64,000 bases of DNA from Nitrospirales bacterium (GCA_965223295.1 CBDCWC010000002.1:352001-416000); one strand, 5' to 3'. Shown: positions 36,332-53,061, numbered from the stretch's first letter. The notes: generated from the sequence alone by a model not told the origin. A program made the numbers and translations.

Positions 36332-36672
36332 TGGGGTGTATCTCTTATTCTGTCAAAGAAATCAAGCTATGGAAACTGCTGGCTCATATTCCAATTTTCT
36401 ATCATGGTTCCATGAATAAGGAGGAAGACAGTTTGAATGGTTGAGAAGCAGACAAGCAATGAACATGACGAGATTGAAAAATATTCGTATATTTTTTCCT
36501 GTGTTGATAGATCGCTTCTTTTCTAAATCTACTCAACAAGAAACAGAAGAACCAGGAGAGGCTATCCTGCTCACGGTTGGTCGCTACGCAATGTGAACAG
36601 GATAGATCCATATAATACAATCTAGGGAAAAGCGTGATTAGTTCCCTAACCATGGGCTGAAGAATTTGCCAC

Positions 36673-37626
36673 TCAAGCGAATGGTTTTTTGAGGACGACT
36701 TTTACGCCGGCAATCGTTCCGGTGACGGCGTCGCGAACCTTTTCGCCTGCCGCTGAACTGATTTCACCAGCGGCAGTTAAGGCACTGGTCGCAGCTTCTG
36801 ATGCCGCTTCTGTGGTATTCACGCCGATTTCCTTGGCTCCTTCGATAGCGCCTTCGACGGCATGCTTGGCGGTCTCACCTACATCGCCTCCTACCTGGCC
36901 AACGGCTTTCACCATTGAACTTGCAGTATGACTCACAGTATCAAGAACTTTTCCGCCAACCTCCTGAGTGCCTTGTATGGCTCCTATCATGGAGTTTTTT
37001 ACTGTAGAGGCCAGATCTCCGCCAAGTTCAACGGTGGCTTTCACCAAACCTCCTGCCGTATGCCCAATGGTGTCAACTGCTGTTTCTCCGATTTCTTTTG
37101 CGGCATGTGCCGTCCCCACGAGGGTTTCTTTCACTGAGCCGCCTAATTCTCCACCTACCTCTGTGACTCCCTTGACAATAGCCGTAGATGTTTTGGTCAC
37201 GGCATCGACGACATTCTCCCCCATGTCTTTTGCGCCCACAATTGTCCCTTGAATAGCTCCCTTAGCTGTTTGGGCGATATCTCCTCCAAGATCCGAGGTG
37301 GTTTTAATCAACGTGGTCGTGCTGGTTCCGACTGCATCTAGGGTATTGGTTGCCACATCTTTTGTGCCTCCGACAACGCCTAAAATCACGCCTTTGGCGG
37401 CTGCCCCGACTTCTCCACCAACTTCCACTATTCCCTGAACTGAGCCGATGATCGTGTTTTTAATCAAGTCACCTGCCTCACTTCCAATGTCTTTCGTGCT
37501 TTTAAGCGCTGTGACTAAGGAGCCGCTCACCGTCTCTACGGTTGCATTGGTCACGTCTCCAACACCTTTAATTGCTTCAATAAGGCCATCTTTGGCTTTT
37601 GCAATGAATGATTGTTGGTCTGACAT
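36673..37626 (-). CDS. Uncharacterised 317-aa Gly/Ala/Val/Thr-rich protein of 22-residue amphipathic repeats (paralog A)
   Basis: RBS AGGGAGG; about ten tandem 22-mers such as VGGEVGAAAKGVILGVVGGTKD; colinear with 51877-52830. Confidence 0.85.
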   Translation of the reverse strand: MSDQQSFIAKAKDGLIEAIKGVGDVTNATVETVSGSLVTALKSTKDIGSEAGDLIKNTIIGSVQGIVEVGGEVGAAAKGVILGVVGGTKDVATNTLDAVGTSTTTLIKTTSDLGGDIAQTAKGAIQGTIVGAKDMGENVVDAVTKTSTAIVKGVTEVGGELGGSVKETLVGTAHAAKEIGETAVDTIGHTAGGLVKATVELGGDLASTVKNSMIGAIQGTQEVGGKVLDTVSHTASSMVKAVGQVGGDVGETAKHAVEGAIEGAKEIGVNTTEAASEAATSALTAAGEISSAAGEKVRDAVTGTIAGVKVVLKKPFA

Positions 37627-37806
37627 GGTATACCTCCCTTGTGGCTATGATGATAGGATGCTGAATGACGAAATGCTGAAAAGAATCTTTCGTGAGAATG
37701 ATATGTGGTTCATAATCTGTTTTTTTGTCTGTTTCACGTGTGTTCGATTGCTAGCATTTAAATATTAAATCATTACTTTATTTTTTAGGATTCAACGCAA
37801 TGTGTA

Positions 37807-40800
37807 CTAATTATTCGATTCCGGTGGTTGACCTTTTTCCTCCTTGGGTAGAGGAAGAGTGATAATGTTCTTTAACATGTCGATGGGGACTTGGGCTAAC
37901 CCTTTGATCCCTCCAGTGAACGAATCGATAGGTCGATAGGTCACTTCAGGTTTGGTTCTTGGACCTTTTACTTCAAACAAAGCTGTTAATAATCCCTTTC
38001 GCTCGCCTTTCATAAGAGAGCCAAACAGTGGGATATCTTTCAATAGATTAGAATAGGCTCCAAATGGACTGACCGCAATCATGCTTTCCAAATTTTCTGT
38101 GGGAATGTCATAGCTGCCGGCAGCCGTGAGTTTGATGACGGGGCTCTTTAAGGCCAAATTATCGGTCGTGAGAAGCCCTTGCTGAATGGAGAAATCTCCT
38201 GTGAGATCATCATAGGGAAGGCCTTCTTCTAAAAGGTTCACCTTGCCCATTAAGAGGCTTGGAATATTCAAGATCCCCAGAATTTTGGATAGCACCGGCC
38301 CGGTTTGAATTTTTCCTTTATGTAGTTGAACCTTACCTTTTCCCGTTAATGAACGTTGCATGTATTCCGGACTTTCCAAGTCCATCGACAGTGAAGTGGT
38401 CAATGAGGTTGTTCCAGTCAATTGTGGTGAAGAATCCGATTGAGCCATGAAAAGGCTTTCGATAGGAATTTCATTGAGGGTGATTTCTCCTTTCCCTTTC
38501 TGGTTTTTCTGGGCCCACTGGATTGAAGTTGATTGAAGGTTTATTGTTTCGTCTGACTTTATACTTTGTGCAGTACGGTTGCTTCCTTCTACTGATCCCT
38601 TCATCGTCCAAGTTTTCCAATCCCAGTTCTTTCCTTCTAGCCCCCACTTGACACCCAAACTGGTAAGGCGAAGGTTTCCATCTCCCAGGATGACTTTGGG
38701 AGGCAGGAGCGCTCCTGTTCCGCTTTCAGTTTGGAAAAACCCGCGAATAGATGGGGGGTCTGACCATACCAGTAGACCTTGGGCTTCTAGAGTATAAGGA
38801 AGGAGAGATAATGTCCCCTGAGTCATGCGGATGGACTGGTTATCTCGCACCGTGCCCTTTGCGTTGAATATTGCCGGGATCCCTGCAGGCTTATGTATGA
38901 TGCCTTTGACGGTCAGCGTCATTGGGGTGAGATCAACATTGGCCTGATACTTGGTGTGCTGTAGAGATCCTGAGAAGGACATAGTGCTGTCGATAGTTCC
39001 ATCGAGAGTCGAGAACGTTTCAGGAATAGAAGGGTAAAGAGCTTTAAGGTCAGATGAGGTAAGTTGACTTGTGATTGAGAGATCATTCGATTGAGAGTCT
39101 TTCCCAAATGACCATTGCCCTTTGATGTCTATCGGACTTTCGCCAAGTTGTCCTTTAAAATCTTGAATACGTAGGCCTTGGTTATCAAAGGATACGTGGC
39201 CATTGAGTTTTTGGAGTGCCAACCCATCTGACGCGGGAAAAAGATGAATGTCATCTAGCAATAATTTTGTCGCCAAAACTTGGAGTTGAGAGGGCTTGGC
39301 CAGAGAACCTTGTATATGTGTCGAGAACTGAAGGCTCCCCCGCGCATCATGATAAATGGTCAATGGTTCAAGGCTTGGTAGGTTACGAGGATCGCGCTGC
39401 AAGGCCTGGTAGACATCATGGGCTTTTAACGAGCCATTGCCATAGAGATCTAGCCAGATATCAGAACCGTTCCATTCAAGCGTGGCTTCTTTGACGAATA
39501 GCTGAGAAGCTGCGATGCTTCCTTTCACATCTACTAGCCGAACCAGATTAGATTCAAAGACAATTCCACCAGAAAGATTTTTCATCTGAGGGTGGTTTTG
39601 ATCGACCAAGACTTGCCCATCGGTGACTCGAAATACTCCCTCGGGCATAAGAGAGTTGGCGTCATCGTCTTTCCACGTCACTGATCCGGTGCGAAGTTCT
39701 ATTTCCCCGTCAATTTGTCGTTCGGCTAAAGTGGTACCAAGGGAAGCGGGGAGCCAGACATCGGGAAGTAAGGTCGAAAAACGTTGAATGGAGATTGGTG
39801 TGGATGATCCTGAAACAGTTAGCGTGGGCGGCATTGTCTGATTTGAGGTGAATTCTAGGATTCCGTGAAGTTTCCAGTCTTGTTCGGAAATCTGAAAATT
39901 GGGAATCTGAAGATCAAGAGCACCATGTTCTTGAAGTGTGAGTGATGCATGAGGAATAGAAATGTTGAATGGCGAGACCTTTCCCTGGACCTGTGAAAAT
40001 TGGAACGCAGAAGGAGTAAAGGTAATGGACCCTGAGATATTACGTATCAGGGGTTGCCCGACAGCAGGGAGATATTGACCGTTTTTCACCTGCAGAATTC
40101 CTTCAGCATTCGATGGGCCAATGGAAGCTAGAGGAATCTGAAAAGATCCCTGCTCAAGTTTTACAATTCCCCTGACTTGATGGTTATGAAGAATCGTCTT
40201 GACGTTTTCAGGTATCCAATCAGGTGGTAAGAGATTGGAGAGTTGTTCAAGAGCAAGAGGTGACGATGATCCTGAGATGTCTAGTTGCGGCGAATCCTGA
40301 AGCAAATCAGCCAGCAGACCCTGGCCGGATAATGTCCAATCGTTTAAGGAAATCTCAAACTCTGAGACTGTCAACAGATCAGTGTCATTTTGCAAGGCGT
40401 ATGAAACGTTTCCTAGAATGTTTGCAACGGTAGAAAGTGGTGGGTCCAATACCTGCTCATTCACAAACTCAACCAAGCGACCAAGGTTCAGTTGTGATCC
40501 TTCAATGTGTCCTTGGAATTCGAAGATGGGCGTCGTATCGTCCTCGATGAGGAGAGATTGATCTGATTCGAGAACTGTGAGCTTTCCATTAAGTGCAAGT
40601 GTGGAAGAATATTCTGGGTCTGCAATCTGTGCTGATAGGTGAATAAGAGAAGGCCCTTCGGTTGTTGTTTGCGTGATCGTGAGTTGTATCGGTTCGACAT
40701 CGAGCGCTGGTATTGTTTGGGCCTCAGACGAGGGAAGCAGGTGTAGGTGCCCGTTACGGACAGCCAATTCTTCTATGGCTGGCAAAGGTTCCGTGCTGGG

Positions 40801-41205
40801 TTCTTCGGAACTCTTGAGCAGCGAGATATCTATCGTCACATTGGGTTCATCGAGTGTGATGTGGTTGACTCTAAGAGTTTTCTGCCAGAATGATTGCCAG
40901 CCAATGCCTACGTTCAAGTGGTCGGCCTGGAAGGACACGTGCTTTGAGTCCTGTGTTTCAAATGTTACGCCTTTGGCGTCAACGGATGGAGAGGGAAAAA
41001 GGTCAAGGTTGAGAGATTGAATTTGAATGGGTCCACCGAGAGTCTGTTCAAGTTGGGACATCAGTGATGTTTTTATCCACTCCGTGTCAGACAAGACCGT
41101 AAGCGTGAAGATTATGATTCCTAGCACCAAGAAGCCACAGATGACGCTACCCCAGACGACACGGGGGAGCCAGGAAGAGAACGGGGCTGTGTGTGGTTGT
41201 TTCAA
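37807..41205 (-). CDS. AsmA-like (YhdP/TamB clan) large periplasmic protein
   Basis: N-terminal TM and AsmA-like start, long beta-rich internal repeats, C-terminal AsmA_2-like segment (LPYDDLTGDFSIQQG...FEVKGPRTKPEV). Confidence 0.82.
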   Translation of the reverse strand: MKQPHTAPFSSWLPRVVWGSVICGFLVLGIIIFTLTVLSDTEWIKTSLMSQLEQTLGGPIQIQSLNLDLFPSPSVDAKGVTFETQDSKHVSFQADHLNVGIGWQSFWQKTLRVNHITLDEPNVTIDISLLKSSEEPSTEPLPAIEELAVRNGHLHLLPSSEAQTIPALDVEPIQLTITQTTTEGPSLIHLSAQIADPEYSSTLALNGKLTVLESDQSLLIEDDTTPIFEFQGHIEGSQLNLGRLVEFVNEQVLDPPLSTVANILGNVSYALQNDTDLLTVSEFEISLNDWTLSGQGLLADLLQDSPQLDISGSSSPLALEQLSNLLPPDWIPENVKTILHNHQVRGIVKLEQGSFQIPLASIGPSNAEGILQVKNGQYLPAVGQPLIRNISGSITFTPSAFQFSQVQGKVSPFNISIPHASLTLQEHGALDLQIPNFQISEQDWKLHGILEFTSNQTMPPTLTVSGSSTPISIQRFSTLLPDVWLPASLGTTLAERQIDGEIELRTGSVTWKDDDANSLMPEGVFRVTDGQVLVDQNHPQMKNLSGGIVFESNLVRLVDVKGSIAASQLFVKEATLEWNGSDIWLDLYGNGSLKAHDVYQALQRDPRNLPSLEPLTIYHDARGSLQFSTHIQGSLAKPSQLQVLATKLLLDDIHLFPASDGLALQKLNGHVSFDNQGLRIQDFKGQLGESPIDIKGQWSFGKDSQSNDLSITSQLTSSDLKALYPSIPETFSTLDGTIDSTMSFSGSLQHTKYQANVDLTPMTLTVKGIIHKPAGIPAIFNAKGTVRDNQSIRMTQGTLSLLPYTLEAQGLLVWSDPPSIRGFFQTESGTGALLPPKVILGDGNLRLTSLGVKWGLEGKNWDWKTWTMKGSVEGSNRTAQSIKSDETINLQSTSIQWAQKNQKGKGEITLNEIPIESLFMAQSDSSPQLTGTTSLTTSLSMDLESPEYMQRSLTGKGKVQLHKGKIQTGPVLSKILGILNIPSLLMGKVNLLEEGLPYDDLTGDFSIQQGLLTTDNLALKSPVIKLTAAGSYDIPTENLESMIAVSPFGAYSNLLKDIPLFGSLMKGERKGLLTALFEVKGPRTKPEVTYRPIDSFTGGIKGLAQVPIDMLKNIITLPLPKEEKGQPPESNN

Positions 41206-41261
41206 AATATTGGCTGTGCCCTCTTTGTCAAAGAGCCACGGGAGGGTGGAGAACTCCAGAG

Positions 41262-41915
41262 TTACGGTACATCTTCGGTTTTTTCGTTATCTTGTAGTTT
41301 AGAAATGGGGTTCGGATCTTCAAACGGGCCAATTAAGTTGGTGCGGTGAAACTCAATGAAGAATAGGACCGTGTATTCGTTATAAAAAGTGAGAGCCTGT
41401 AGCCAGGGAGTTGAACGTAGAAATTGACCAGTGGCGGTTTCAAAGATATCCAACCGGAATCGACTGAACCCTGATTGATATTGAGCCGCATATAATGAAA
41501 TTTCTGGCAAGGAGAAGGGAATTAATACACTCTGAACGGGAGGCATGCCAAAGAATGATCGACTTTGTTCCGTGCCTAAACTTTGAACCAAGATTTGAAT
41601 GTGGTAGGAAGCCTCTTGACCATCCAGTGCAAGTCGCAATCCCTGTTCTCCTAACCAGCGGCCAACGGCGCCAATGAGAAAGCGGTGTTCGCTGGCTAGT
41701 CCAGTCGTCTCCAATTTGATCGTGGAGTCTACAGGAAGTGGAAGAGAGAACGCGTCCTTTCCCTCAAGGCTTTTTTCTATTGCCTGAGTGACGAGCAACT
41801 GCTCAATAGCCGTGGCCTGATCGGGTGTTGGCAGTTCTTTCATGACGGCGCAGCCTGTCGATGCGATGAGAAGAACGCAAAGGACTATGTGGGTTTTTAT
41901 AGCGTGGAGATTCAT
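41262..41915 (-). CDS. Hypothetical lipoprotein (DUF6655-like)
   Basis: Lipobox STGC, TAIEQLLVTQAIE, PEISLY. Start could also be 41984. Confidence 0.7.
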   Translation of the reverse strand: MNLHAIKTHIVLCVLLIASTGCAVMKELPTPDQATAIEQLLVTQAIEKSLEGKDAFSLPLPVDSTIKLETTGLASEHRFLIGAVGRWLGEQGLRLALDGQEASYHIQILVQSLGTEQSRSFFGMPPVQSVLIPFSLPEISLYAAQYQSGFSRFRLDIFETATGQFLRSTPWLQALTFYNEYTVLFFIEFHRTNLIGPFEDPNPISKLQDNEKTEDVP

Positions 41916-41976
41916 AGGTCGAGCGAGGAGATCCTGTGGCAGATTGTTGGACGATGCATCGGCACGTTGACACTTG

Positions 41977-43068
41977 TTACCCATGTTCCTCCTCATGAGA
42001 GAGAGTCTCGAGATCCATTTCTTCCTGTATTTCTTCGTGGAATTCGGCGACAACCTTTTCTGCCTTGGCTGTGTTATGCACCTTGGCGATATGAAATAGG
42101 GCATCGCCTTGATTCACGACTGGCAAGCTTGTTCGCCCAATGAGGATTCCAGCCGTTCCTGCTTCAATAAGTATTTCAGTGGTGCCCATCGGATCGGTCA
42201 CTCGGCCTACTTTGTCACCTTGTTTCACTTTAGCTCCCAGAGGTAATAACGACTGAAAAATTCCTCCTGTTGGAGTTCGCACCCAATACGAGGCTCGTGA
42301 AATGACGCTCTTGTTTTTTTTTGGTGGAAGGATTTTCCCAAGCATGCCCAGGGCTTGCATGACATGAATAATTCCTTTCACTCCAAGACGGATAGCCATT
42401 TCATCAAAACGTAAAGCTTCTCCGGCTTCATACAACATGGTTGGAATGTGTTTATCTGTCGCTGCCCTCCGTAGCGACCCGTCGCGAAGGTCAGAATGTA
42501 AAACCAAGGGCGCAGAAAACGAGCGAGCTAATTGTTCCATAACCGGATCTGTCAGGTCTGCTCTAATTTGCGGGAGGTTACTCCGATGAATGGCGCCCGT
42601 GTGGAGATCAATCCCATGTGTGCATCGTAAGACGACTTCTTGCATGAAGAGACGGGCCAATTGAGCCGCCAGAGAACCTTTTTCGCTGCCTGGAAAACTT
42701 CGATTCAAATCTCGACGATCAGGCAAGTATCGTGAGTGAGCCAAAAATCCAAATACATTGACGATGGGGACAGCAACGAGGGTGCCCCGTAATTTATTGA
42801 TGCGGCGTGTTTTGAGAATGCGGCTAATAATTTCCACTCCATTTAATTCATCTCCATGAATTGCTGCACTGATAAAAAGACGCGGTCCATCGTGTTTCCC
42901 ATGAATGATGTGGATAGGGATATCCATTGGAGTATGGTTGGAGAGTAAACTTACGGGTAAGTGTATGCTCCGCCGGGTACCGGGAGGAATGGCCGTGCCG
43001 CCAATTTCAAACGATTGGCGTGATGCCTTAGCCGCGACCGCGGGTCTTTGTTTTATTGGGTTTCGCAT
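41977..43068 (-). CDS. Succinylglutamate desuccinylase/aspartoacylase family protein
   Basis: [30 protein letters not shown] motifs. Start uncertain; ATG 43068 overlaps the end of rimK. Confidence 0.92.
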
Positions 43069-43933
43069 TCTTCTCGATAAATTTGATGATAGCTTTGGCG
43101 ACGTCAATTTGAGTGGCTTTTTCGATGCCTTCCAAGCCAGGAGAGGAATTAATTTCCATGACCACGGGGCCGTGTTTGGAGCGAAGCAAGTCCACTCCAC
43201 ACACATTGAGGCCCATGATACTGGCTGCCCGAGTGGCTGTGGACCGTTCTTCGGGCGTGATCTTGATCACTTGTGCGCTACCACCTCGATGAAGATTGGA
43301 TCGAAAGTCGCCCTTTGCGCCTTGACGCTTCATTGCAGCGATCACCCGATCCCCAATGACTAAACAACGGATGTCAGATCCCCCGGCTTCTTTGATAAAT
43401 TCTTGAACCATGATATTCACTTTTACGCCGCGAAATGCCTCAATCACGGATTTGGCAGAATTGTGAGTTTCGCCTAGTACCACTCCAATGCCTTGGGTGC
43501 CTTCAAGGAGTTTGATGACAACAGGAGCTCCTCCGGCAATCTCAATGACGTCATCTGCAAAATCATCAGAATGAGCAAAGGCGGTGACGGGTAGGCCGAT
43601 GCCCTTTCTGGCCAACAATTGCAAAGAACGCAGTTTATCTCGCGACCGTCCAATGGCTACCGATTCATTAAGAGGCCAGACTCCCATCATTTCAAATTGT
43701 CGTAACACGGCTAACCCGTAAAAAGTGATGGAGGCTCCAATTCTTGGAATAATGGCATCGTAACCTTCCAGTGAGGCTCCCTTATAGCGAAGTTCTGGAT
43801 GATGTGAGGTGATATTCACATACACTTTGGTCGTGTTAATAATATCAATTTCGTGTCCGGCTGCCTCTGCGGCTTCGACCAAGCGTTGATGCGAGTATAA
43901 CTTTGGATTTCGGGCCAACATTCCAATTTTCAT
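43028..43933 (-). CDS. rimK: RimK family ATP-grasp glutamate ligase
   Basis: [58 protein letters not shown]; 301 aa. Confidence 0.95.
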
Positions 43934-43996
43934 GAGGTGCTTCTCCTTTTCATGGTAATCATAGCATTATTATTTAAAGGGATTGAGAAAAATGGA

Positions 43997-44425
43997 CTAT
44001 TGATGTGTGAGGCAATAGGACTTCCCAGGATCAACGAGAAAATGGCCTTTTATGGCTGTTCGTCCCAGTAACATTCGGAATCCCATTTCATCTCGATTCG
44101 TGAGGGTTATTTCAATGGGCCAGGATTGGTTTCCCATGGCCAATTGGGTTTCAATGACGACGCGTTGTTCTCGTGACCCACCGGAATTGGTGATGATTCG
44201 AATATCCCTGACTGGGCAGGTACATGTTTTTATGTCGGAGTCATTTTTTTGATAGGGGTGTATGGCAAATCTGGCCCACTCTTGTCCGCCTTTTTTGTAT
44301 ACTTCAATATCAAAAGCATGAATAGCCGCCGTTCGAGCTCCGGTGTCGATTTTGGCCTTAATCCGCTCCACTCCCAAGTCGGGAAGAGCAATCCATTCCC
44401 TCCAGCCAATTATTGGTTTATCCAT
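43997..44425 (-). CDS. RimK-associated putative protease (ATP-dependent Zn protease family, RimB-like)
   Basis: IGWREW, KAKIDTGA, LTNRDEMGFRMLLGR motifs; directly upstream of rimK. Confidence 0.92.
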   Translation of the reverse strand: MDKPIIGWREWIALPDLGVERIKAKIDTGARTAAIHAFDIEVYKKGGQEWARFAIHPYQKNDSDIKTCTCPVRDIRIITNSGGSREQRVVIETQLAMGNQSWPIEITLTNRDEMGFRMLLGRTAIKGHFLVDPGKSYCLTHQ

Positions 44426-44500
44426 ACTAACGAAAGCTCTTCTGAAAGCAGTGGATAGTTAAGTATGTCAACGAGTAGTAACATTGCAACCTTTCAAGAG

Positions 44501-45535
44501 TTAATAAAAATTCACCAGTGGATTGCGCTTAACAATGCCACGTAGGAGACGTCCTAAAATATCGGCTCCAGTGATGATGCGTTTGTGTTCTGCGGTCCAA
44601 ATGAGAACCAAGTCGTGGTCAATCACGTCATCTTCGATATGTTCCGGATTAACTTTAAAGAGTTTCAGGAGTTCCCCGAGCGGGACTTCGGTGTGGTCGA
44701 GAACGATGGGACGATGACAATGACGGAGAGGTTTGTAGTGATTCTCCACTAACAGTTCCCGCAAAAATCCGTCGGCATCTAGAACAACTTGGGGATCATC
44801 TTGTTCATCCGTAATGACAACCCATTTCTCATTTGAGGCATGAATCTGTTGGACGAATGTATCTGAGACCAATGGAGCCGTAACCGGGAATTGAATTTTT
44901 CCCTCATTGAATGGAAGCTGAACAATGCTTTGCGGATGGAGTGGTGATCCTTCCTCAAAGACGGGAATATCATCAAGATGTAAAAAATTTGAGGCGCCGT
45001 GTCCTTCAACGTTGCTGATGTCTGTTTCAGGGGCCTTGGCATGAATCTCAATAAGCGTTTCGAGCTCATGTTCTTTGAACCAGGAGATCCCTTCTTTCCC
45101 AACTAGGCGGTCGAGGAGAAATGCGGATGGTTTAGCCACTGGATAAAACAAAAATTGTAACACAGAGACGATGGGCGAAAACTTGGCTCCCATCTTCAGC
45201 GCATTCCTGGAAAAATAGGCTTGAGGAAGAATCTCCCCAAAGATGGTGATTCCAAATAAAGAGAAAAGAAAAGCAAAAAGCCCCACCATTTGTTTCTCGG
45301 AAAGCAAAGTCAACAGTACATTGACTGCTACGTTACTCCAGAGAAGCGTTGCGAGCAGGAAATTGGAATCCTGGCGGATTTGTAAGACTTTGTTAGCAAA
45401 GACATCCCCTTGTTGAGCCATGAGTTCGAGGCGAACCCTGCCAAGGCTGAAGAATCCAAGTGTGAGCCCTGAGCAAATTGCAGATCCTGCCAAGCATGCG
45501 AAAATGCCAATCCAGAGTAATAGTGATTGGGTCAT
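44501..45535 (-). CDS. CNNM (DUF21) domain protein
   Basis: SGLTLGFFSL, LLATLLWSNVAVN, FGEILPQA; degenerate CBS-like C-terminus. Confidence 0.88.
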   Translation of the reverse strand: MTQSLLLWIGIFACLAGSAICSGLTLGFFSLGRVRLELMAQQGDVFANKVLQIRQDSNFLLATLLWSNVAVNVLLTLLSEKQMVGLFAFLFSLFGITIFGEILPQAYFSRNALKMGAKFSPIVSVLQFLFYPVAKPSAFLLDRLVGKEGISWFKEHELETLIEIHAKAPETDISNVEGHGASNFLHLDDIPVFEEGSPLHPQSIVQLPFNEGKIQFPVTAPLVSDTFVQQIHASNEKWVVITDEQDDPQVVLDADGFLRELLVENHYKPLRHCHRPIVLDHTEVPLGELLKLFKVNPEHIEDDVIDHDLVLIWTAEHKRIITGADILGRLLRGIVKRNPLVNFY

Positions 45536-45591
45536 GATGTCATGTCACGCGGTAGGAAAAATGGGGTGCATGTCATGGGTCCTCAAAAACA

Positions 45592-46896
45592 TTACTCCAA
45601 AAAACTGGAAAAGATCGTTGCCAGTCCTAAAAAACTGAAAAATCCTGCGACGTCCGTCACCGTTGTTAAAATGATCGATGATGATTGAGCAGGATCTTGT
45701 TTGAGGGATCGGAGAATAATGGGAATGATTGCCCCAGAAAGCCCTGCCATAAGCATGGAGATGATCATGGAGATTCCAATGACCATGGTCAATCCCCACG
45801 AACCGCTCCAGAAGAACACCGCAGTACAGGTGGTGGCTGCGACGGCCACGCCATTGCCGAGGGCAACATACGATTCTTTCAATGTCACTGGAAGCCATTG
45901 AGAGGGACGAATGTCCCGTAAAGCTAATCCCCTCATCACAACGGCAAGCGCTTGGGCCCCGGTATTGCCGGACTGGCCAGCCACGACGGGTAGCAATACG
46001 GCCAAGGCGGTAAATTTGGCAATCGTGTCTTCAAACATTCCCACGACAAACGCGGCTAAAAAAGCCGTGAGTAGATTGATTTGCAACCAGGGCAAGCGCT
46101 TGCGAATGGCAAACCATGGAGATGAAAGAGCGCGTTCATCTTTGCTCGCACCTACCATGGTTTGCATACTGATTGTAGCTTCTTCTTTTTCAACTTGGAT
46201 GATATCTTGGTTGCGAATAATACCAAGTAATCGGCCGTCTAAATCCGTCACGGGAATGGTAAGCACCTTCCATTCACTGGAAATTTCCACAACCTGCTCC
46301 TGATTTTCAAGAGGATGGATCGTTGGTAACTCGCGCTTCATCAATGCAGCAAGCGTTGTTTGTGGAGGTGCTAAAAAGAGGTCTGTTAGAGAGAGTACCC
46401 CAACAAGGACTTGGCGGCGATCAATAATATAGATCTCATTGGCACGGGGGGGAGTGTATATGCGAATTTGTTGGATTGCCTCCTCGACCGTCATATCCTC
46501 CAAAAGGGTAAAGAATTTCACGTCCATGATCATGCCGACTGAATCTTCTGGATACTCAAGAAATGGACGAATGTCAGCAGAAACCTGTTGAGGCAAAGCG
46601 ATCAGGATGTTTTCCCTGCTCTCGGTGGGTAATCGTTGAAGGAGGGAAGCTGTTAACGAAGGTGGCATATGTGGGGTAGAATTCAAAAGTAACGGTTCAG
46701 GTAATTTCCCAAGAAGGTCGGCAACCAATGATGGAGACATGGCCGACAGGATTTTTGCCATATCTTTGTGTGGCAAATTACACAGGGTATCGATGATTTC
46801 TTGTAGGGCATGGGCCTCAAACACATGAGCGGCTTCGTCGGGAAATTTGGCAATAAACGCCTGATGCATGAGTTCGGGGTTTGTGGTGGTTGTCAT
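45592..46896 (-). CDS. mgtE: Magnesium transporter MgtE
   Basis: N-domain, CBS pair, RLPWL, PVVAGQSGNTG, DPA..S...TTVTD. Start ATG 46896 overlaps the upstream stop (ATGA). Confidence 0.92.
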   Translation of the reverse strand: MTTTTNPELMHQAFIAKFPDEAAHVFEAHALQEIIDTLCNLPHKDMAKILSAMSPSLVADLLGKLPEPLLLNSTPHMPPSLTASLLQRLPTESRENILIALPQQVSADIRPFLEYPEDSVGMIMDVKFFTLLEDMTVEEAIQQIRIYTPPRANEIYIIDRRQVLVGVLSLTDLFLAPPQTTLAALMKRELPTIHPLENQEQVVEISSEWKVLTIPVTDLDGRLLGIIRNQDIIQVEKEEATISMQTMVGASKDERALSSPWFAIRKRLPWLQINLLTAFLAAFVVGMFEDTIAKFTALAVLLPVVAGQSGNTGAQALAVVMRGLALRDIRPSQWLPVTLKESYVALGNGVAVAATTCTAVFFWSGSWGLTMVIGISMIISMLMAGLSGAIIPIILRSLKQDPAQSSSIILTTVTDVAGFFSFLGLATIFSSFLE

Positions 46897-47759
46897 GAAG
46901 TTTCCTGTTCTTCCGGAGCTGGTGCGGAAGGTGTCATAGTGGTTAAGACATTTCCAATCGTCGTCATGAGTACCATCCCAGATAACGAATAGGCCTCCCA
47001 CAACTGCAGAAGACCATCTGAGAGAAAAGCTGGTTGATATTCGATGGATTTGGACTGGAGATATTGTCTCAGGGTACGGTGGCGAAGTGCGCCAATAAAC
47101 GTCTTGTCTTGAGCAATGACTGGAAGGCTATCGAAGCGTGCCCAAGCCGGATGCGCCACAATGTCCCTGGCATTGGCAGAAGAGGGAATCACTTTGACTT
47201 CCTGATTCATGATAGAAGTTAGCGTGCTAGCAGGTTCGGCCGCGAGAAGCTCTTTCATCAGCACCACTCCTATAAGGATGTTCCCACGGTCAATAATGTA
47301 TAAGTAGTAAATCGCTTGATGCGGAACGTGCACGATACGCTGCAGGGCATCTCCCACAGTGATATCAGGAGGCAGTGTCAGGACTAGAGGATCGGCTAGG
47401 CTCCCGGCTGTATGTTCCGACAAGTGAATGGTTCGGCGAAGTAAGCTCGCTGCACGAGGTTCGAGGTGCCCGAGCAACGTTTCCTGTGTGGAAGGATCAA
47501 CTTGCCGGAGAATGGCTCGAGAAAACCCGGGAGATAGTCGGCCAAGAATTTCAGCGCTGACTGCTGGTGGGCATTCTTTCAGGATTGTGGCAGCCGCACT
47601 TGGTGAGAAATATTCGAGGGTTTGAGCCACATGTGCGGGCTCCATGGTTAGGAATATGTCTCTCGTTTCCTGGGCCGGTCGTCCCTCGAGATATCTAGCG
47701 GCCTCCAATGGATGTTTCTCAAGAAACTTCTTTTGGAGATGGTGTTCCAACTTCATCAT
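46893..47759 (-). CDS. Stand-alone MgtE N-domain + CBS-pair protein lacking the MgtE pore domain
   Basis: FLEKHP.EAA, TAGSLADP, YYLYIID...LIGVV, LPVIA CBS motifs; no MgtE membrane domain. Confidence 0.82.
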   Translation of the reverse strand: MMKLEHHLQKKFLEKHPLEAARYLEGRPAQETRDIFLTMEPAHVAQTLEYFSPSAAATILKECPPAVSAEILGRLSPGFSRAILRQVDPSTQETLLGHLEPRAASLLRRTIHLSEHTAGSLADPLVLTLPPDITVGDALQRIVHVPHQAIYYLYIIDRGNILIGVVLMKELLAAEPASTLTSIMNQEVKVIPSSANARDIVAHPAWARFDSLPVIAQDKTFIGALRHRTLRQYLQSKSIEYQPAFLSDGLLQLWEAYSLSGMVLMTTIGNVLTTMTPSAPAPEEQETS

Positions 47760-47760
47760 G

Positions 47761-48594
47761 TTATGCCTCGACCGGTTCAATCACGCTGGTGACTTCGGTG
47801 AATTGTGCGGCTGGAATCACCACTCGCCCACGCTCTGTATCCAACACGACGATCATGGGCGTCACGGCAGTGACGGTGCCGGAGTAGTTCTCAATCTGAA
47901 TCTTTTCCCCAATACGAACAACGGGTTGAATGTAATGTGCGGCAATGAGATTTTTGACTGCTGATCGAGACCCAAAACCAAATGACAAGGCGGATCCGGC
48001 AATGAGACCCGCAATGACGAGCACGATAATTTGGTTTAAGAGTGAGGTGTCAATCCCGAGTTCATTAATGGCGGTCACGATAACCAGGAGGGTGGCGGCG
48101 ATGTACACAGTTTGGGCGATAATCGTACTCTGTTGGATCCCAGAAGAATCACATGCTACAGCGATAATGTCCCGTACAAAGTTGGTGGCTAGGAGTCCTA
48201 GGATCAAAATAAGTGTCGCCATTCCAATTTTTGGAAGATAATGCACGAGCATGGTCAAGGTTTCAGACAAGAGGGCGAGACTCAGCGCTTCGGTGGCAGA
48301 AATGAGAAAAAGAAGAAAGACGAGCCAAAATCCCAGGAGCCCGACAATTTGAGAAATAGATCTATTGCTTCCAGTTTTTTGAATCAGAGAGAGAAGTCCC
48401 GTGCCGCTGAGCCATCGATCGATACCGATCATATTCAAGATCCGGCTGGATCCGGCTTCAATGATTTTCCCCAAGAGAATCCCCAGTCCCAGCAACATCA
48501 ACGCGCCAAGAGTTTTAGGGAGATAGGTCATAAATAATGTAACACTTGATTCAAGTGATTCTTGCATAGCTTTTGTCCAAATCGCTATATCCAT
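47761..48594 (-). CDS. Small MscS-like mechanosensitive channel protein (TM-helix repeat type)
   Basis: Two YLPK-led TM repeats, ALSFGFGSR..KNLIA, then the MscS beta domain (IGEKIQI..YSGTV...IP). Confidence 0.85.
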   Translation of the reverse strand: MDIAIWTKAMQESLESSVTLFMTYLPKTLGALMLLGLGILLGKIIEAGSSRILNMIGIDRWLSGTGLLSLIQKTGSNRSISQIVGLLGFWLVFLLFLISATEALSLALLSETLTMLVHYLPKIGMATLILILGLLATNFVRDIIAVACDSSGIQQSTIIAQTVYIAATLLVIVTAINELGIDTSLLNQIIVLVIAGLIAGSALSFGFGSRSAVKNLIAAHYIQPVVRIGEKIQIENYSGTVTAVTPMIVVLDTERGRVVIPAAQFTEVTSVIEPVEA

Positions 48595-49447
48595 GAGAAA
48601 GACCTCCTAGGATTTTTTGAGAAAAAAGTGGAATGACGGAAAGATAACAATTGGAAGATGGCGGTTAAGATATCGAAAGTTGTTCTTTGTTCCTTAGATG
48701 GCCTGGCATAATTCTCTGCGGGAGCAACTGTTGAGACAATTTTTTCAGCATTTCTAAGTGGCCTTTCATTTGTAGTCATCTGCATGTGAGGAATCGAATT
48801 CTTGTGATGCCTATCTGCTAGTTTTTTGCCGATGATTTTTTCGTCTTCCCAATGTCCTCCCTTTTTGTACTCAATCATAAGTGGCTCATGAGAGGCCGAG
48901 TATCGTTATTCCGATAAACAAACCTATCAAAATCTTCATGTGCAACCTTACTGTTTTCTACCCGAGCTATGTGCCTTTTCGTTCCGATGGATGACTTTAT
49001 GAATTCTGGCTGCCATGGTTGAGGTTGTCTTCAAAATGTTGTGATTCATTTTTGTGATGTGTCTTGAAATTACAAGGCCGATATGTTTTTGGCGTGGCCT
49101 AAGTTTTTACTCCTGAAATTTAGATAAGTCATCTTTTGGCTTACATAAATAAACTATGGAGAATATTGATAGTGTGAAAATTTTAACTGTGCTAGATGGA
49201 GTCGGAATCTGAATGTCTTAAGCCAATGACGACGTAACAGACAAAAGGCTAGCAACAACCAAAGGAGCAAATGTTCAATTACTTTGGTGAATGAAAACGG
49301 CTCCTTTATCTTGGAAAGGTCAATGTGTAAGTTTTCCCGTCAAGCGAATCGGACAAAAGTAGAATTTTTGGTGATTTCATCAAGCAATAGAGGTGTCCTG
49401 ACTTCTTTAAGCTCTTTCTTTTGCGTGTCATTCCTTGGTGTGGTTAT

Positions 49448-49477
49448 TTAGACAATGAGAAACAACAATTCGTCACA
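49448..49477 (-). promoter_or_regulatory. Candidate ECF sigma promoter TGTGACG-N15-TTGTCTAA
   Basis: Reverse complement of ttagacaa-N15-cgtcaca; identical boxes and spacing to 51783-51812. Confidence 0.7.
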
Positions 49478-49478
49478 T

Positions 49479-49692
49479 GGGTCTGTTGAAAAAATCCGCC
49501 AGCGGCGTTCTAGCCATTTTTCCGTGCTCGCGTAGGACCAATACGCTCTGTGCGCAAGAATGGTTGTGGCCTTCCCTTCGACAAGCTCAGGACAGGACTG
49601 GATGGATTTTTTTCAACTGCCCCGAAGCTATTGGTATCCGACGTGATCATGAGCAAATTTGTCTCTCGTGTTTTGTATTATTCAACACTTCC
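49479..49692 (+). repeat. MITE-like intergenic repeat, copy 4
   Basis: GGGTCTGTTGAAAAAATCCGCCAGCGGCGTTC...CCCTTCGACAAGCTCAGG...TTTTTCAACTGCCCC...TTATTCAACACTTCC. Confidence 0.8.
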
Positions 49693-49876
49693 TCATATGG
49701 ACGTTTCAAAAGTAGGTGTCGAGAGAGATTTGAAGAAATTGGAAGAAGCCGTGTTGGGAATCACGAGGGTTGAGGATGGGGACTCGAGCCTCTACTTGGG
49801 AGTAGATAGCAAGCAGGAGAACTCAATGTGTAGAAAGGTTGAATAGTCGGTAGCTAAAGAGGGACTCTTAAAGATT

Positions 49877-50722
49877 TTACGATGGTCTTTGTTTGGAACC
49901 CTCCGTAATGATTCGTTCATTTGGAATGTGCAGTGTTTCCTCATCGGCCGTTTTGATGATAACCGAAACGGGAGTTATTTTGATGATCGTTCCCTTATAT
50001 CCGCCTAGAGACACGGAATCTCCGACATGGAAGAGTTGAGAGATGTAGTAGCGGGCAAGGACATTTGTCATAATGGACCGGCTTCCCAGGCCAAGAGATA
50101 GGGCTAAGGCTAACACGATTCCAGAAATAATGATCGTGATATTGGCACTAAAAATGGTCATATCCAATCCGAGTTCGGTTAAGGCCATGACAATACCAAA
50201 GCCCACAATCAAAATTTCCAGTACCGAACTTAAAGCCCCAGCATAGGCAATGTTGAGCGAGGTTGAGGCTGAAGCAAGTCCGTCTTTAATAACCTTGGTG
50301 AGATACAAGGCAATGATCAGAATTAAAAGGGCTCCGAAAACATGTGGAAGGTAGGCAATAAATCTATTCAATGTATCTAGGACAAGCTTGAAGCCTAAGA
50401 TTTCCGAGGCCGAAAGAAGAACAATGAAAAGCACCATGTAATAGACCAGACCTCCTAATATCTCGTCTAGCGTTTTCGTTATTCCCACCTTGGTTAACAT
50501 GGAATGGAATTTGATTTTTTTGCTTAATTCCACAATCCCACAGGCACGAAGGACTTTCACCGTCAAACTTCTAAGGATTTTGGCCCCCAGCCATCCAATT
50601 GCAAGAATGACAATTGCTCCAAGTACGTTTGGGAGATATCCACCAATTTTTTCGAAGATGCTTTGAAGAAATACCAGAACAACCTTTCCCCATTCCCAGA
50701 GTTCGTTCTGTGTGCCTACCAT
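49877..50722 (-). CDS. Small MscS-like mechanosensitive channel protein, paralog
   Basis: YLPN/YLPH TM repeats, ALSLGLGSR, VGDSVSL.GYKGTI...IPN. Confidence 0.85.
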   Translation of the reverse strand: MVGTQNELWEWGKVVLVFLQSIFEKIGGYLPNVLGAIVILAIGWLGAKILRSLTVKVLRACGIVELSKKIKFHSMLTKVGITKTLDEILGGLVYYMVLFIVLLSASEILGFKLVLDTLNRFIAYLPHVFGALLILIIALYLTKVIKDGLASASTSLNIAYAGALSSVLEILIVGFGIVMALTELGLDMTIFSANITIIISGIVLALALSLGLGSRSIMTNVLARYYISQLFHVGDSVSLGGYKGTIIKITPVSVIIKTADEETLHIPNERIITEGSKQRPS

Positions 50723-50734
50723 TTCTCTCTCCTC

Positions 50735-50917
50735 TCACTCATCTGTTGAATCGGTAAATAATGTGACGGGGATCGAGGCGTGAAATGCTCCAACTTCCTT
50801 CGCGACTGTGAGGAAATATACGGCTTTCATGATCTGTTTTTTCGTGGTTTTGTCAGGATCAGGAATGGCCAGTGAATCGAGAACATGTTCAAACAGCTGT
50901 TGTTCATCGCTATTCAT
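50735..50917 (-). CDS. Small 60-aa protein coupled to the ECF sigma (candidate anti-sigma/partner)
   Basis: ATG overlaps the sigma stop (ATGA), preceded by GGAGGAGG. Confidence 0.6.
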   Translation of the reverse strand: MNSDEQQLFEHVLDSLAIPDPDKTTKKQIMKAVYFLTVAKEVGAFHASIPVTLFTDSTDE

Positions 50918-51438
50918 GATTTGACCTCCTCCCGGAGCTTGGTGATCAATCGTGATACTCGCATTTTTGCGGCACTCACGCCAATGTTGCAACTTGCCGC
51001 AATTTCTTCATACGAATATTTCCCAAGAAATTTCATAGCCAGAATGGTCCTGTCTTCCAGGGAGAGTTTTTGCAGAAGATGATGAATTTCAATTGACGCG
51101 GCTGGGTTATCTTGGCTGGGTGCATCCAATGGTATATCCCCCGACAACACCTCAGAATGAGCCTTTGATTTGAGGTAGTTAAGGCAATGATTGGTGGATA
51201 GTCGATACAGCCAGGATGAAAATGCAGAGTGCTTCTTGAACGCATGGAGGTGCAGGAAAACTTTGACCCAGATTTCCTGCATTAAATCTCGAGCGACTTC
51301 AATGTTTAAACAGATAAAGTAGCAGCGCTTTAGAACTTTCTTGGCATATCGGTCATATAAAATTTCGAACGCCTGAAGGTCTCCTTGGTTAATGCTGTCA
51401 ATAAGTTCGTTGTCAGTGAAATGTTCGTATAAAGGCAT
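50914..51438 (-). CDS. ECF-subfamily RNA polymerase sigma-70 factor
   Basis: AFEILYDRY, DLMQEIWVK, FSSWLYRLSTN region 2; YSYEEIA...VSAAKMRVSR region 4. Confidence 0.92.
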   Translation of the reverse strand: MPLYEHFTDNELIDSINQGDLQAFEILYDRYAKKVLKRCYFICLNIEVARDLMQEIWVKVFLHLHAFKKHSAFSSWLYRLSTNHCLNYLKSKAHSEVLSGDIPLDAPSQDNPAASIEIHHLLQKLSLEDRTILAMKFLGKYSYEEIAASCNIGVSAAKMRVSRLITKLREEVKS

Positions 51439-51782
51439 AGAGAGATAGATCTGGAGGAAAGAGTATTATGGACTTAGCCGGCATTGATCTGAGCGGGTGT
51501 ATAGTCCTGAGCTGTCTTATGCATAGTCTATCCCTAACCATTTGGGCAGACCTAGGGCAGAGATTTAGAGCAGCCTGAGCTTTGGTCAATATCCCAAATT
51601 CTTCCGATTGTAAATAGATTGATTTCTTGCTTCTCTTTCCAAAGGTAGAGGAAGCGGTTTTCTACGTCTTCTATGAGAGTTCCCTTGGTTCGTCAAGTAT
51701 GGTGCCACATTTTTTGAACTGACCTGTTGTATCACATGACATAATTCTCAAGAAACAATTATGAAGAAATTATCCTACTATT

Positions 51783-51812
51783 TGTGACGTTTTTTCCTGT
51801 TACGTTGTCTAA
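51783..51812 (+). promoter_or_regulatory. Candidate ECF sigma promoter TGTGACG-N15-TTGTCTAA
   Basis: Ends 65 bp before the ATG of repeat-protein paralog B; twin at 49448-49477. Confidence 0.72.
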
Positions 51813-51876
51813 GAGTACATGAAGGGCAATTGCGTCAAATTCTTTCATTTTCATTTAAAAGTGGAGGGTAAAGATT

Positions 51877-52830
51877 ATGGCTGAAGAAAAATCCGTTATC
51901 GTCAAGACAAAAGAAGGTGTTGTTGAGGCTATTCAAGGTACAGGTGACGTGACAAGCGCACTTCTAAACCTGGTAAGCGGAACCCTTGTAACGGCATTAA
52001 AGGGAACGAAAGCAGTCGGGGGGGAAGCTGCAAGTTTGGTCAAGGATACAATTGTGGGCTCAGTCAGGGGAATTGCTGATGTAGGGCAAGAAGTGAGTTC
52101 TGCAGCAAAAGGCGTCATTGTGGGTGTTGTGACAGGTACAAAAGAAGTCACGGAAAGTACTCTGGATACAATTGGGAAAAGTGTTAGTACGTTAATTCAT
52201 ACAACTTCCGAAGTGGGTGGTGATCTTGCGCAAACAGCCAAAGGGGCGATGGAAGGGGCTATTGTTGTTGCGAAGGATCTAGGAGTCAGTGCCACCGAGG
52301 CAATTACCCAAACCAGTACATCAATTATTTTTGGTGGGAAGCAGGTTGGGGGTGAGTTGGCAAATACGGCCAAAGAAACTATGATTGGCGCGGCCCAAGG
52401 TGCGAAAGAAGTTGGAGTGCAAGCGATAGAAACCGTAAGTCATACGGCGGGAGCAGTCGTGAAGGCCACATCTGAACTTGGCGGGGATGTGGGTTCAACA
52501 GTCAAAGGAAGTATGGTTGGGGCCCTTCATGGAGCCAAAGAGGTTGGTGCAACCGTACTAGATGCCGTGGCAGGGACCGCAAGTTCCATGATTAAATCCA
52601 CGGGCCAAGTTGGAGGAGATCTCGCCATTACTGCAAAAAATGCTGTTGAGGGTGCAATTGAAGGGGCTAAGGAGATAGGTGTCGACACGGCCGAAGCCGC
52701 TTCAGCAGCTGCAAGTAGCGCGCTAAAGGCGGCGGGGGATATCAGTAGTGATGCTGGAAAAGCAGTCCGTGATGCGGTTTCTGGGACAATTGGCGGGGTG
52801 AAAGTTGTGCTCAAAGAGCCGTTCAAATAG
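51877..52830 (+). CDS. Uncharacterised 317-aa amphipathic 22-mer repeat protein (paralog B)
   Basis: RBS GGAGG; same length and gap-free alignment with 36673-37626; conserved C-terminus GVKVVLK.PF. Confidence 0.85.
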   Translation: MAEEKSVIVKTKEGVVEAIQGTGDVTSALLNLVSGTLVTALKGTKAVGGEAASLVKDTIVGSVRGIADVGQEVSSAAKGVIVGVVTGTKEVTESTLDTIGKSVSTLIHTTSEVGGDLAQTAKGAMEGAIVVAKDLGVSATEAITQTSTSIIFGGKQVGGELANTAKETMIGAAQGAKEVGVQAIETVSHTAGAVVKATSELGGDVGSTVKGSMVGALHGAKEVGATVLDAVAGTASSMIKSTGQVGGDLAITAKNAVEGAIEGAKEIGVDTAEAASAAASSALKAAGDISSDAGKAVRDAVSGTIGGVKVVLKEPFK

Positions 52831-53061
52831 AAATACAGGTTCTCGTGTTTACTAAGGAAATAGGAAATTAAAATAACCTTTTTCTATGGTGAAGGTTATT
52901 TGTTGGATAGCGGAGAAATTGTGCAGATAAATTTTGGTAAAGAAGAACGAGGGGAGGCCTATCAATAAAGTATAATACAAGTAAATATTGGAGTTTATGT
53001 GTTCCTTTTCCCTAACCAGTAGAGTCTTAGAAATCTTCTTGTTCCTCATCTGTTTGGTTTG

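Follow-up and report, generated by a model that had tools for sequence, protein, structure and literature searches.

We analyzed a 64,000-nucleotide stretch of a Nitrospirales genome (GCA_965223295.1 CBDCWC010000002.1:352001-416000; hereafter, the window), in which two related genes bracket a block of envelope and ion-homeostasis genes between positions 36,673 and 52,830. The two genes, which we call RepA and RepB, encode members of a repeat-protein family (Rep). Every gene between them lies on the minus strand, beginning with a gene for an extracytoplasmic function (ECF) sigma factor. Our analysis supports a functional link among the block genes as a stress unit for the envelope and ion homeostasis, and it suggests that Rep may be the main cytoplasmic effector of that unit. 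A prediction made earlier from this sequence (the original prediction) had proposed an undescribed envelope/osmotic stress system; the linked stress unit stands, but its novelty does not, since the core of the unit parallels the SigX locus of Pseudomonas.

RepA and RepB are gap-free paralogs built from a 44-residue repeat

36673..37626, minus strand: RepA, 317 aa; seven 44-residue helical-hairpin repeats plus a C-terminal beta-hairpin, as predicted; the fast-evolving paralog
51877..52830, plus strand: RepB, 317 aa; preceded by a strong Shine-Dalgarno sequence

RepA and RepB are paralogous genes whose products align without gaps, as originally described. BLASTP gives 199 identities over 316 positions (63%, E=1e-122), and its midline reproduces the 33 identities that had been counted in the first 60 residues. 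The pair had also been said to point outward from the block. RepB does diverge, from the ECF gene, but RepA reads in the same direction as the block and closes it. There is no third Rep copy in the 3.78-Mb, three-contig genome. Seven Rep orthologs and paralogs are each 317 aa long, with zero indels and a mean column identity of 79%, and in the protein tree RepA falls, within the 317-aa group, in a four-row clade with a long branch.

Autocorrelation of the Rep sequences gives a top peak at lag 44 (mean BLOSUM score of 1.51), with the next at lag 22 (0.71/0.63) and then lag 66, whereas lag 11 by itself is weak and not enriched (-0.24 in RepA). The Rep unit is therefore a 44-residue hairpin made of 11/22 sub-periods. 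Thus, the 11/22-residue repeat of the original prediction is real and survives as the 11/22 sub-periods, but its dominant period is 44 and the bare 11-residue period is weak.

No signal peptide or membrane segment is predicted in RepA or RepB. Both proteins have positive grand average of hydropathy (GRAVY) values (+0.21/+0.29), an isoelectric point of about 5, and a composition rich in G/A/V/T/K. The Rep genes carry AAGGAGG-type ribosome-binding sites, and we propose from these sequence features that Rep proteins are probably strongly translated and cytoplasmic.

Rep is predicted to fold as a compact solenoid

The AlphaFold2 model of Rep, built from seven sequences, consists of 14 helices of about 18 residues each and a terminal beta-hairpin, with a predicted local distance difference test (pLDDT) score of 86.8 and a predicted template-modelling (pTM) score of 0.87. 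A model of a 200-aa homolog, built from 62 diverse sequences, repeats these hairpins and the C-terminal beta-hairpin (pLDDT 91.9, pTM 0.86). Rep is therefore predicted, with high confidence, to be a compact solenoid of helical hairpins with its hydrophobic faces buried. The best fold matches are de novo designed helical repeat (DHR) proteins (Foldseek TM 0.80; VIA Z of 20.7, 16.2 and 12.8), and natural solved repeat-protein chains reach a VIA Z of at most 8.1. Neither sequence-profile nor fold searches found a natural relative in the PDB; the sequence-profile matches were all designed proteins, and DHRs (e.g. 8cwy, 7mwr and 5cwb) top both the structural and the profile comparisons. Because DHRs are artificial, they resemble Rep in geometry and composition, and no common ancestry is implied. 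An ESM Atlas match to DUF6781 (0.76) was too weak for use, and the nearest Atlas clusters are unnamed.

The original prediction had Rep as a soluble amphipathic protein that coats or remodels membranes. In its fuller form, this explanation holds that Rep is phasin-, perilipin- or apolipoprotein-like, with a helical bundle that opens to coat membranes or hydrophobic inclusions and buffer lipid packing defects. The 11/22 sub-periodicity and the G/A/V/T/K-rich composition fit such a protein, as do an AsmA-like lipid-transport homolog within the operon and hydrophobic moments that exceed those of shuffled sequences by 1-3 standard deviations in most Rep helices. The moments themselves (0.18-0.51) are unremarkable, however, and make the helices only moderately amphipathic. 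RepA scores 30.9 bits against Phasin_2 (PF09361; cut-off 24.9), yet no individual stretch passes and RepB has no match. The remaining family matches (BMFP, Chlorosome_CsmC and an Ag473 lipoprotein model) are weak and compositional. The small-residue, Lys/Glu-rich composition and 11/22 sub-period are shared with the 11-mer amphipathic repeat proteins, namely group 3 late embryogenesis abundant (LEA) proteins, alpha-synuclein, perilipin 4 and apolipoproteins, and with phasins; apart from the weak Phasin_2 match, this comparison draws on general knowledge of those families. Unlike synuclein- or perilipin-type 11-mer helices, Rep has a dominant period of 44 and a fold predicted to be compact (pLDDT 87-92), with the hydrophobic faces buried in both confident models. 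The fusions of Rep to receiver and SpoIIAA-like domains described below also better suit a protein-binding module. We consider membrane coating unlikely, and the original claim is not borne out by the predicted fold.

The ECF module resembles the Pseudomonas SigX switch

At the RepB end of the block lie three genes that we refer to as the sigma module:

50914..51438, minus strand: ECF sigma factor, 174 aa; Sigma70_r2 (PF04542) and r4_2 (PF08281)
50735..50917, minus strand: orf60, putative anti-sigma factor, 60 aa, acidic and soluble; start codon overlapping the ECF stop (ATGA)
49877..50722, minus strand: MscS1, truncated MscS-like protein, 281 aa; two copies of PF05552 and PF00924 (partial beta-domain)

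The annotated open reading frame (ORF) of orf60 encodes 85 aa, but the 25 upstream codons hold a stop in a related locus (L026), and the public collection contains a product of precisely 60 aa. orf60 is conserved in orthologs and translationally coupled to the ECF gene, and MscS1 is conserved after orf60 in 9/9 loci with the module. In a predicted complex, orf60 contacts both sigma2 (residues 19-62) and sigma4 (residues 108-172) of the ECF protein. The model has an ipSAE of 0.74 (0.70-0.74 in three runs), compared to 0.00 for the best of three controls, with a partner pLDDT of at least 69 and contact agreement of at least 82%. Of 157 solved complexes, 116 reach the mark used for such models, as do 2 of 215 mismatched pairs, though a pass may partly reflect resemblance to solved sigma/anti-sigma complexes. 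The model supports binding of orf60 to the ECF sigma factor.

The cmaX-cfrX-cmpX-sigX locus of P. aeruginosa is classed as ECF102, a "mechanosensing" ECF group with a role in membrane and envelope stress (PMC7641640, PMC7826278, PMC8999054). In the portions of these sources that describe it, the ECF102 layout comprises SigX, the small soluble putative anti-sigma factor CfrX, the MscS-like CmpX and a CorA-like Mg2+ transporter (PMC7826278 and its supplement; PMC8999054, PMC7641640). The window likewise has an ECF gene, a small soluble protein, a small MscS-like protein and a Mg2+ transporter nearby, so the claim that no named system has this composition does not hold for the core (PMC7641640, PMC7826278). 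The likeness is one of layout, not a sequence-level assignment. orf60 (60 aa) is likened to CfrX (84 aa) by size, solubility and position, and MscS1 holds the position of CmpX. The gene order differs from that of the Pseudomonas locus, with the sigma gene first here, and the SigX locus as described in those accounts has no counterpart of the Rep effector, RimBK or AsmA-like cargo. ECF102 is reported there from Bacteroidetes and Gammaproteobacteria, whereas this block is from Nitrospirales; its target motifs are reported as not conserved and the SigX regulon as large, whereas here the motif is sharp and conserved and the regulon tiny and local. By analogy, the block appears to be a Nitrospirales counterpart of the membrane-stress switch that SigX provides in Pseudomonas.

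RepB and the MscS2-MgtE operon share a promoter motif

The motif stands at two positions in the window, upstream of RepB and of an operon that begins with a second MscS-like gene:

51783..51812, plus strand: ECF-type promoter motif TGTGACG-N17-GTCTAA, 64 nt before the RepB ATG
49448..49477, minus strand: the same motif, upstream of the MscS2-MgtE operon
49498-49514: terminator-like hairpin, after MscS1 and just upstream of the second motif
48595..49447, minus strand: leader of about 850 nt between the second motif and the MscS2 start; no conserved ORF or Rfam match
47761..48594, minus strand: MscS2, truncated MscS-like protein, 277 aa; two copies of PF05552 and a partial PF00924
46893..47780, minus strand: soluble MgtE_N and CBS protein with no membrane domain (Pfam)
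45592..47001, minus strand: MgtE Mg2+ channel; TIGR00400, 258.3 bits (cut-off 232.75)
44501..45535, minus strand: CNNM/CorC-type membrane protein; PF01595, 117 bits
43997..44425, minus strand: RimB-like retropepsin-type aspartic peptidase; PF05618, 139.8 bits; NF052261, 131.9 bits, under the cut-off of 200
43028..43933, minus strand: RimK alpha-L-glutamate ligase; NF007764, 431.9 bits (cut-off 331)
41977..43206, minus strand: AstE/AspA-type zinc peptidase-like protein (longest ORF); PF24827, 135 bits; true start probably past the RimK stop
41262..42104, minus strand: probable lipoprotein (longest ORF); likely start near 41915, giving a signal peptide that ends ...STGC
37807..41205, minus strand: AsmA/YhdP-like protein, 1132 aa; PF13116, 120.6 bits (cut-off 46), and PF05359/DUF748; N-terminal anchor with hydrophobic residues 12-44
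53059..54720, plus strand: Na+/Pi cotransporter; PF02690; possibly co-transcribed with RepB

For the genes that the original prediction had listed, from the ECF gene to the AsmA-like gene, Pfam and NCBIfam agree with the earlier assignments. The regions upstream of RepB in this locus and two relatives (L025 and L026) have in common TTTGTGACGT-N14-GTTGTCTAA, i.e. TGTGACG and GTCTAA boxes 17 nt apart. Aside from a ribosome-binding-site stretch, this motif is the only strongly conserved block of the ECF-RepB intergenic region. The exact motif, with 13 specified bases, occurs twice in the 3.78-Mb genome against 0.34 occurrences expected, and both copies have the N17 spacer and are intergenic, correctly oriented and within the block. 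Scans for sigma-70 promoters and terminators gave nothing above shuffled sequences. With zero or one mismatch, the motif is present in 9/9 ECF-orf60-MscS1 loci (this locus, L025, L026, L028, L032 and L125-L128) and in none of the 12 scanned Rep loci that lack the sigma module. In L028 and L032, it lies between MscS1 and a co-oriented Rep gene. As far as sequence can indicate, the shared motif is an argument that RepB is regulated together with the MscS2-MgtE operon.

Among relatives, the motif precedes a 488-502-aa protein with four PF05552 copies, an MscS2-to-AstE operon, a receiver-PHO4-Usp-NaPi/PhoU set, and operons of three Asp23-family genes. In one genome that lacks RepB (G001), it faces the Na/Pi transporter directly. 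The Asp23 operons, found in G002 and G023 (L126 667-2756; L128 4733-6819), comprise three genes of the Asp23/alkaline shock family (PF03780) and a 194-aa unknown, and they stand behind the motif as RepB does here. Rep therefore holds the equivalent position in the regulon. Asp23 is an abundant cytoplasmic, membrane-tethered envelope-stress protein. The two families have no sequence similarity (no Pfam match) and their predicted folds differ. The complete genome analyzed here has no Asp23 match.

Rep is linked to block genes in Nitrospirales relatives

We examined 16 loci from public genomes that encode 317/318-aa Nitrospirales Rep proteins. Block orthologs lie within 10 kb of Rep in 10 of the 16, in five layouts. 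Rep directly follows the AstE-like gene (L020, L023, L024 and L027), diverges from ECF-orf60-MscS1 (L025 and L026), follows ECF-orf60-MscS1 in the same orientation (L028 and L032), or, as RepA, follows AsmA (L017 and L018); the fifth layout, with the RepA and RepB forms together, is this locus itself. The linkage to ECF, MscS, MgtE, RimK and AsmA genes thus recurs, where its absence would have counted against the original prediction. The lipoprotein gene is conserved beside AsmA in L017, L018 and L035, and beside a RepB remnant in L016.

Membrane-protein genes also adjoin Rep outside the block. In three loci with no block orthologs (L029-L031), the neighbors of Rep include BrkB, two MscS genes of full length, and trehalose/glucan genes. 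Rep is flanked by full-length MscS genes in L011/L013 and L038, and BrkB or MscS adjoins it in L011/L013, L035 and L038. L035 has the order Rep-lipoprotein-AsmA, which differs from that of the block, and a distant Nitrospiraceae locus has Rep-lipoprotein-AsmA together with BrkB and a K+ channel. MscS adjoins Rep in a Dehalococcoidia locus. YhjD/BrkB and YdbH-YnbE have links to lipids. Two further loci place Rep beside DnaJ/MerR-type genes (L021 and L022), and one is a short contig (L019).

The block decays repeatedly in relatives (L017 4387-10951; L016 7839-11270; L127 1-1277). Its frequent partial deletion or rearrangement would fit a bracketing that arose by accident, through a local duplication and rearrangement, with Rep having no functional connection to the block, and the lack of a motif at RepA also fits that explanation. 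Yet the linkage holds in five independent arrangements and the motif is common to RepB and the operon, and we disfavour an accident as very improbable.

The wider Rep family

A profile search returned 752 Rep-family cluster representatives at E <=0.001 (306 at <=1e-10). Most members are about 190 aa long and unnamed, and share a C-terminal ...GVKVVLKEPF module. In metagenomic proteins, Rep repeats are joined to a BrkB/YihY membrane domain, to receiver domains (over the Pfam cut-off in P0005 and P0122, under it in P0025) or to a double SpoIIAA-like domain (P0014); the set of BrkB, receiver and SpoIIAA-like fusions comprises P0135, P0009, P0005, P0122 and P0014. A word-indexed homolog search for longer fused forms gave a single 362-aa match, which is domain-free.

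The receiver and SpoIIAA-like fusions raise the possibility that Rep serves the sigma pathway as a scaffold for signalling or as a feedback regulator, such as a partner-switching protein or adaptor, rather than as a protective effector. Alpha-solenoids are typically protein-binding scaffolds, and RepB is the nearest gene to the sigma factor. Against this, Rep has two copies and strong ribosome-binding sites, which suggests a protein made in bulk, it is widespread with no ECF gene nearby, and the sigma module persists where Rep is absent. A regulatory role appears rather unlikely on this balance.

A metagenome scan with a six-sequence query alignment found 377 relatives, from which 80 loci were retained (50 non-redundant), and the neighbor survey covered 136 of 156 selected ORFs from 43 loci. 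The neighbors of the ~190-aa family are heterogeneous: OmpA domains at six loci, MlaC-OmpA at three, Gly-zipper at three, PRC-barrel at two and BON at one, with trehalose-6-P synthase, superoxide dismutase, MsrA and HtrA as further neighbors. The tight linkage of Rep to the block is therefore a Nitrospirales feature.

Such neighbors are typical stress-island genes, and Nitrospirales Rep neighbors include TreS/GlgE, Usp and DnaJ/MerR. Both would suit a dormancy or general-stress regulon in which Rep serves in the cytoplasm as a general protectant, has no specific membrane partner and stands in the block through shared regulation only. Rep is not hydrophilic (GRAVY +0.2 to +0.3), however, unlike group 3 LEA proteins and hydrophilins, and the Pfam scan gave no LEA family match. 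Moreover, the BrkB fusion and the repeated adjacency of MscS, BrkB and AsmA point to the membrane. We judge a general protectant to be distinctly unlikely.

Other features of the block

Both MscS1 and MscS2 stop inside the beta-domain, and the C-terminal alpha/beta domain (PF21082) is not matched by Pfam. An Rfam scan of positions 36000-53500, with E values up to 1, gave zero matches, so there is no Mg2+ riboswitch in the long MscS2 leader. Alignment of the leader across seven loci revealed no convincing conserved core. At the leader position, L026, L125 and L028 carry the 488-502-aa gene with four PF05552 copies, and the motif occurs a second time in L026 and L125. No remnant of that gene was found in the leader gap, and it seems to have been lost from this position here. 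Two ORFs are probably not genes: one of 97 aa (48585-48878), with no family and weak or no conservation, and one of 83 aa (36402-36653), with no family and no conservation in seven loci.

The RimABK system of Pseudomonas glutamylates ribosomal protein S6. As far as published accounts of RimABK describe it, the block is similar in that RimK is preceded by a RimB-like retropepsin, and differs in that there is no RimA and an AstE-like peptidase comes after RimK instead. RimK acts on a C-terminal Glu-Glu of S6. The S6 protein of this genome (G000:C3:1822065-1822331) ends ...SGDGGIQ and has no C-terminal Glu, although RimK is a full equivalog. The C-terminal Glu of orf60 is invariant (4/4 orthologs) and could be an alternative RimK acceptor. 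The genes after Rep in L028 (10990-14123) encode a Zn_protease/retropepsin-like protein, an inactive-transglutaminase seven-transmembrane protein and an ATPgrasp_ST ligase, a peptide-ligase trio different from RimB-RimK-AstE.

Just past RepA, on the same strand, lies a gene for a 907-aa GH63/MGH1-like glycoside hydrolase (33608-36331), which may be a compatible-solute hydrolase. No such gene was found beside Rep in the other loci.

Discussion

We favour, with the chances about evenly balanced, the explanation that a compact stress regulon for the envelope and ion homeostasis, acting locally, centers on an ECF module resembling SigX-CfrX-CmpX and has Rep as its main effector in the cytoplasm. 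The ECF sigma factor, orf60 as the candidate anti-sigma factor and MscS1 would form the sensing unit. Once released, the sigma factor would read the two TGTGACG-N17-GTCTAA promoters. From one of them, transcription would run through RepB and perhaps into the Na/Pi transporter that follows. The second would drive MscS2, MgtE_N/CBS, MgtE, CNNM, RimB, RimK, the AstE-like peptidase, the lipoprotein and the AsmA-like protein, possibly continuing into RepA. Under osmotic or mechanical stress, Rep would work on the cytoplasmic side of the membrane, binding or stabilizing membrane proteins such as MscS-like channels or BrkB/YihY. We infer both the inducing signal and this molecular role. The predicted fold favours a folded cytoplasmic protein-binding module at the membrane over a lipid-coating helix, as do the fusions and the MscS, BrkB and AsmA genes that recur beside Rep.

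Several observations weigh against this explanation. The sigma module is kept where Rep is lost or unlinked: G001 has no RepB, and in G002 Rep lies elsewhere with no motif. In G006, RepB is a pseudogene with stop codons, located between the NaPi and lipoprotein genes. L017 has lost the stretch from RepB to RimK and retains a partial NaPi gene, an AstE fragment, the lipoprotein gene, AsmA and RepA. The top NCBIfam model for the ECF protein is SigX-named, but its score of 87.6 bits is below the cut-off of 194 and barely ahead of other ECF models. [quoted passage not shown] Compared with the Pseudomonas locus, as far as the sources describe it, MgtE and CNNM stand here in place of CorA, and the block has no OmpA/OprF-type gene. 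In the ~190-aa family, MscS adjoins Rep at just 2 of the 43 scanned loci, and no ECF, MgtE or RimK gene was found beside Rep in those loci. We infer that the ECF sigma factor reads the motif from their co-occurrence, and no motif with up to two mismatches was found upstream of the ECF gene or RepA. When one mismatch is allowed, the genome has 11 matches compared to 13.5 expected by chance; the regulon therefore appears local. Finally, AlphaFold may be over-confident for regular repeats such as those of Rep.

A more specific version of the favoured stress regulon is a long shot. Here, Rep would be a new natural class of near-idealized helical repeat, dedicated to a mechanosensing ECF pathway as its effector. 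Its conserved C-terminal beta-hairpin would dock on truncated MscS-like channels or BrkB/YihY as the missing cytoplasmic vestibule or a brace, tuning gating or, under tension, protecting the membrane. The role of the RimK/RimB/AstE-like trio would be to add and remove poly-Glu tails on a target outside the ribosome, e.g. the invariant C-terminal Glu of orf60.

The SigX/ECF102 mechanosensing pathway is poorly understood, and its promoter consensus has been reported as undefined or not conserved. The Nitrospirales variant would represent a minimal case, with a crisp motif that has just two exact matches genome-wide, a very small soluble protein as the candidate anti-sigma factor, and clearly identifiable cargo. 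In such a minimal system, sigma release, channel involvement and output are directly testable in a heterologous host. For Rep, the locus would provide a first functional context for a widespread protein family that has no annotated function.

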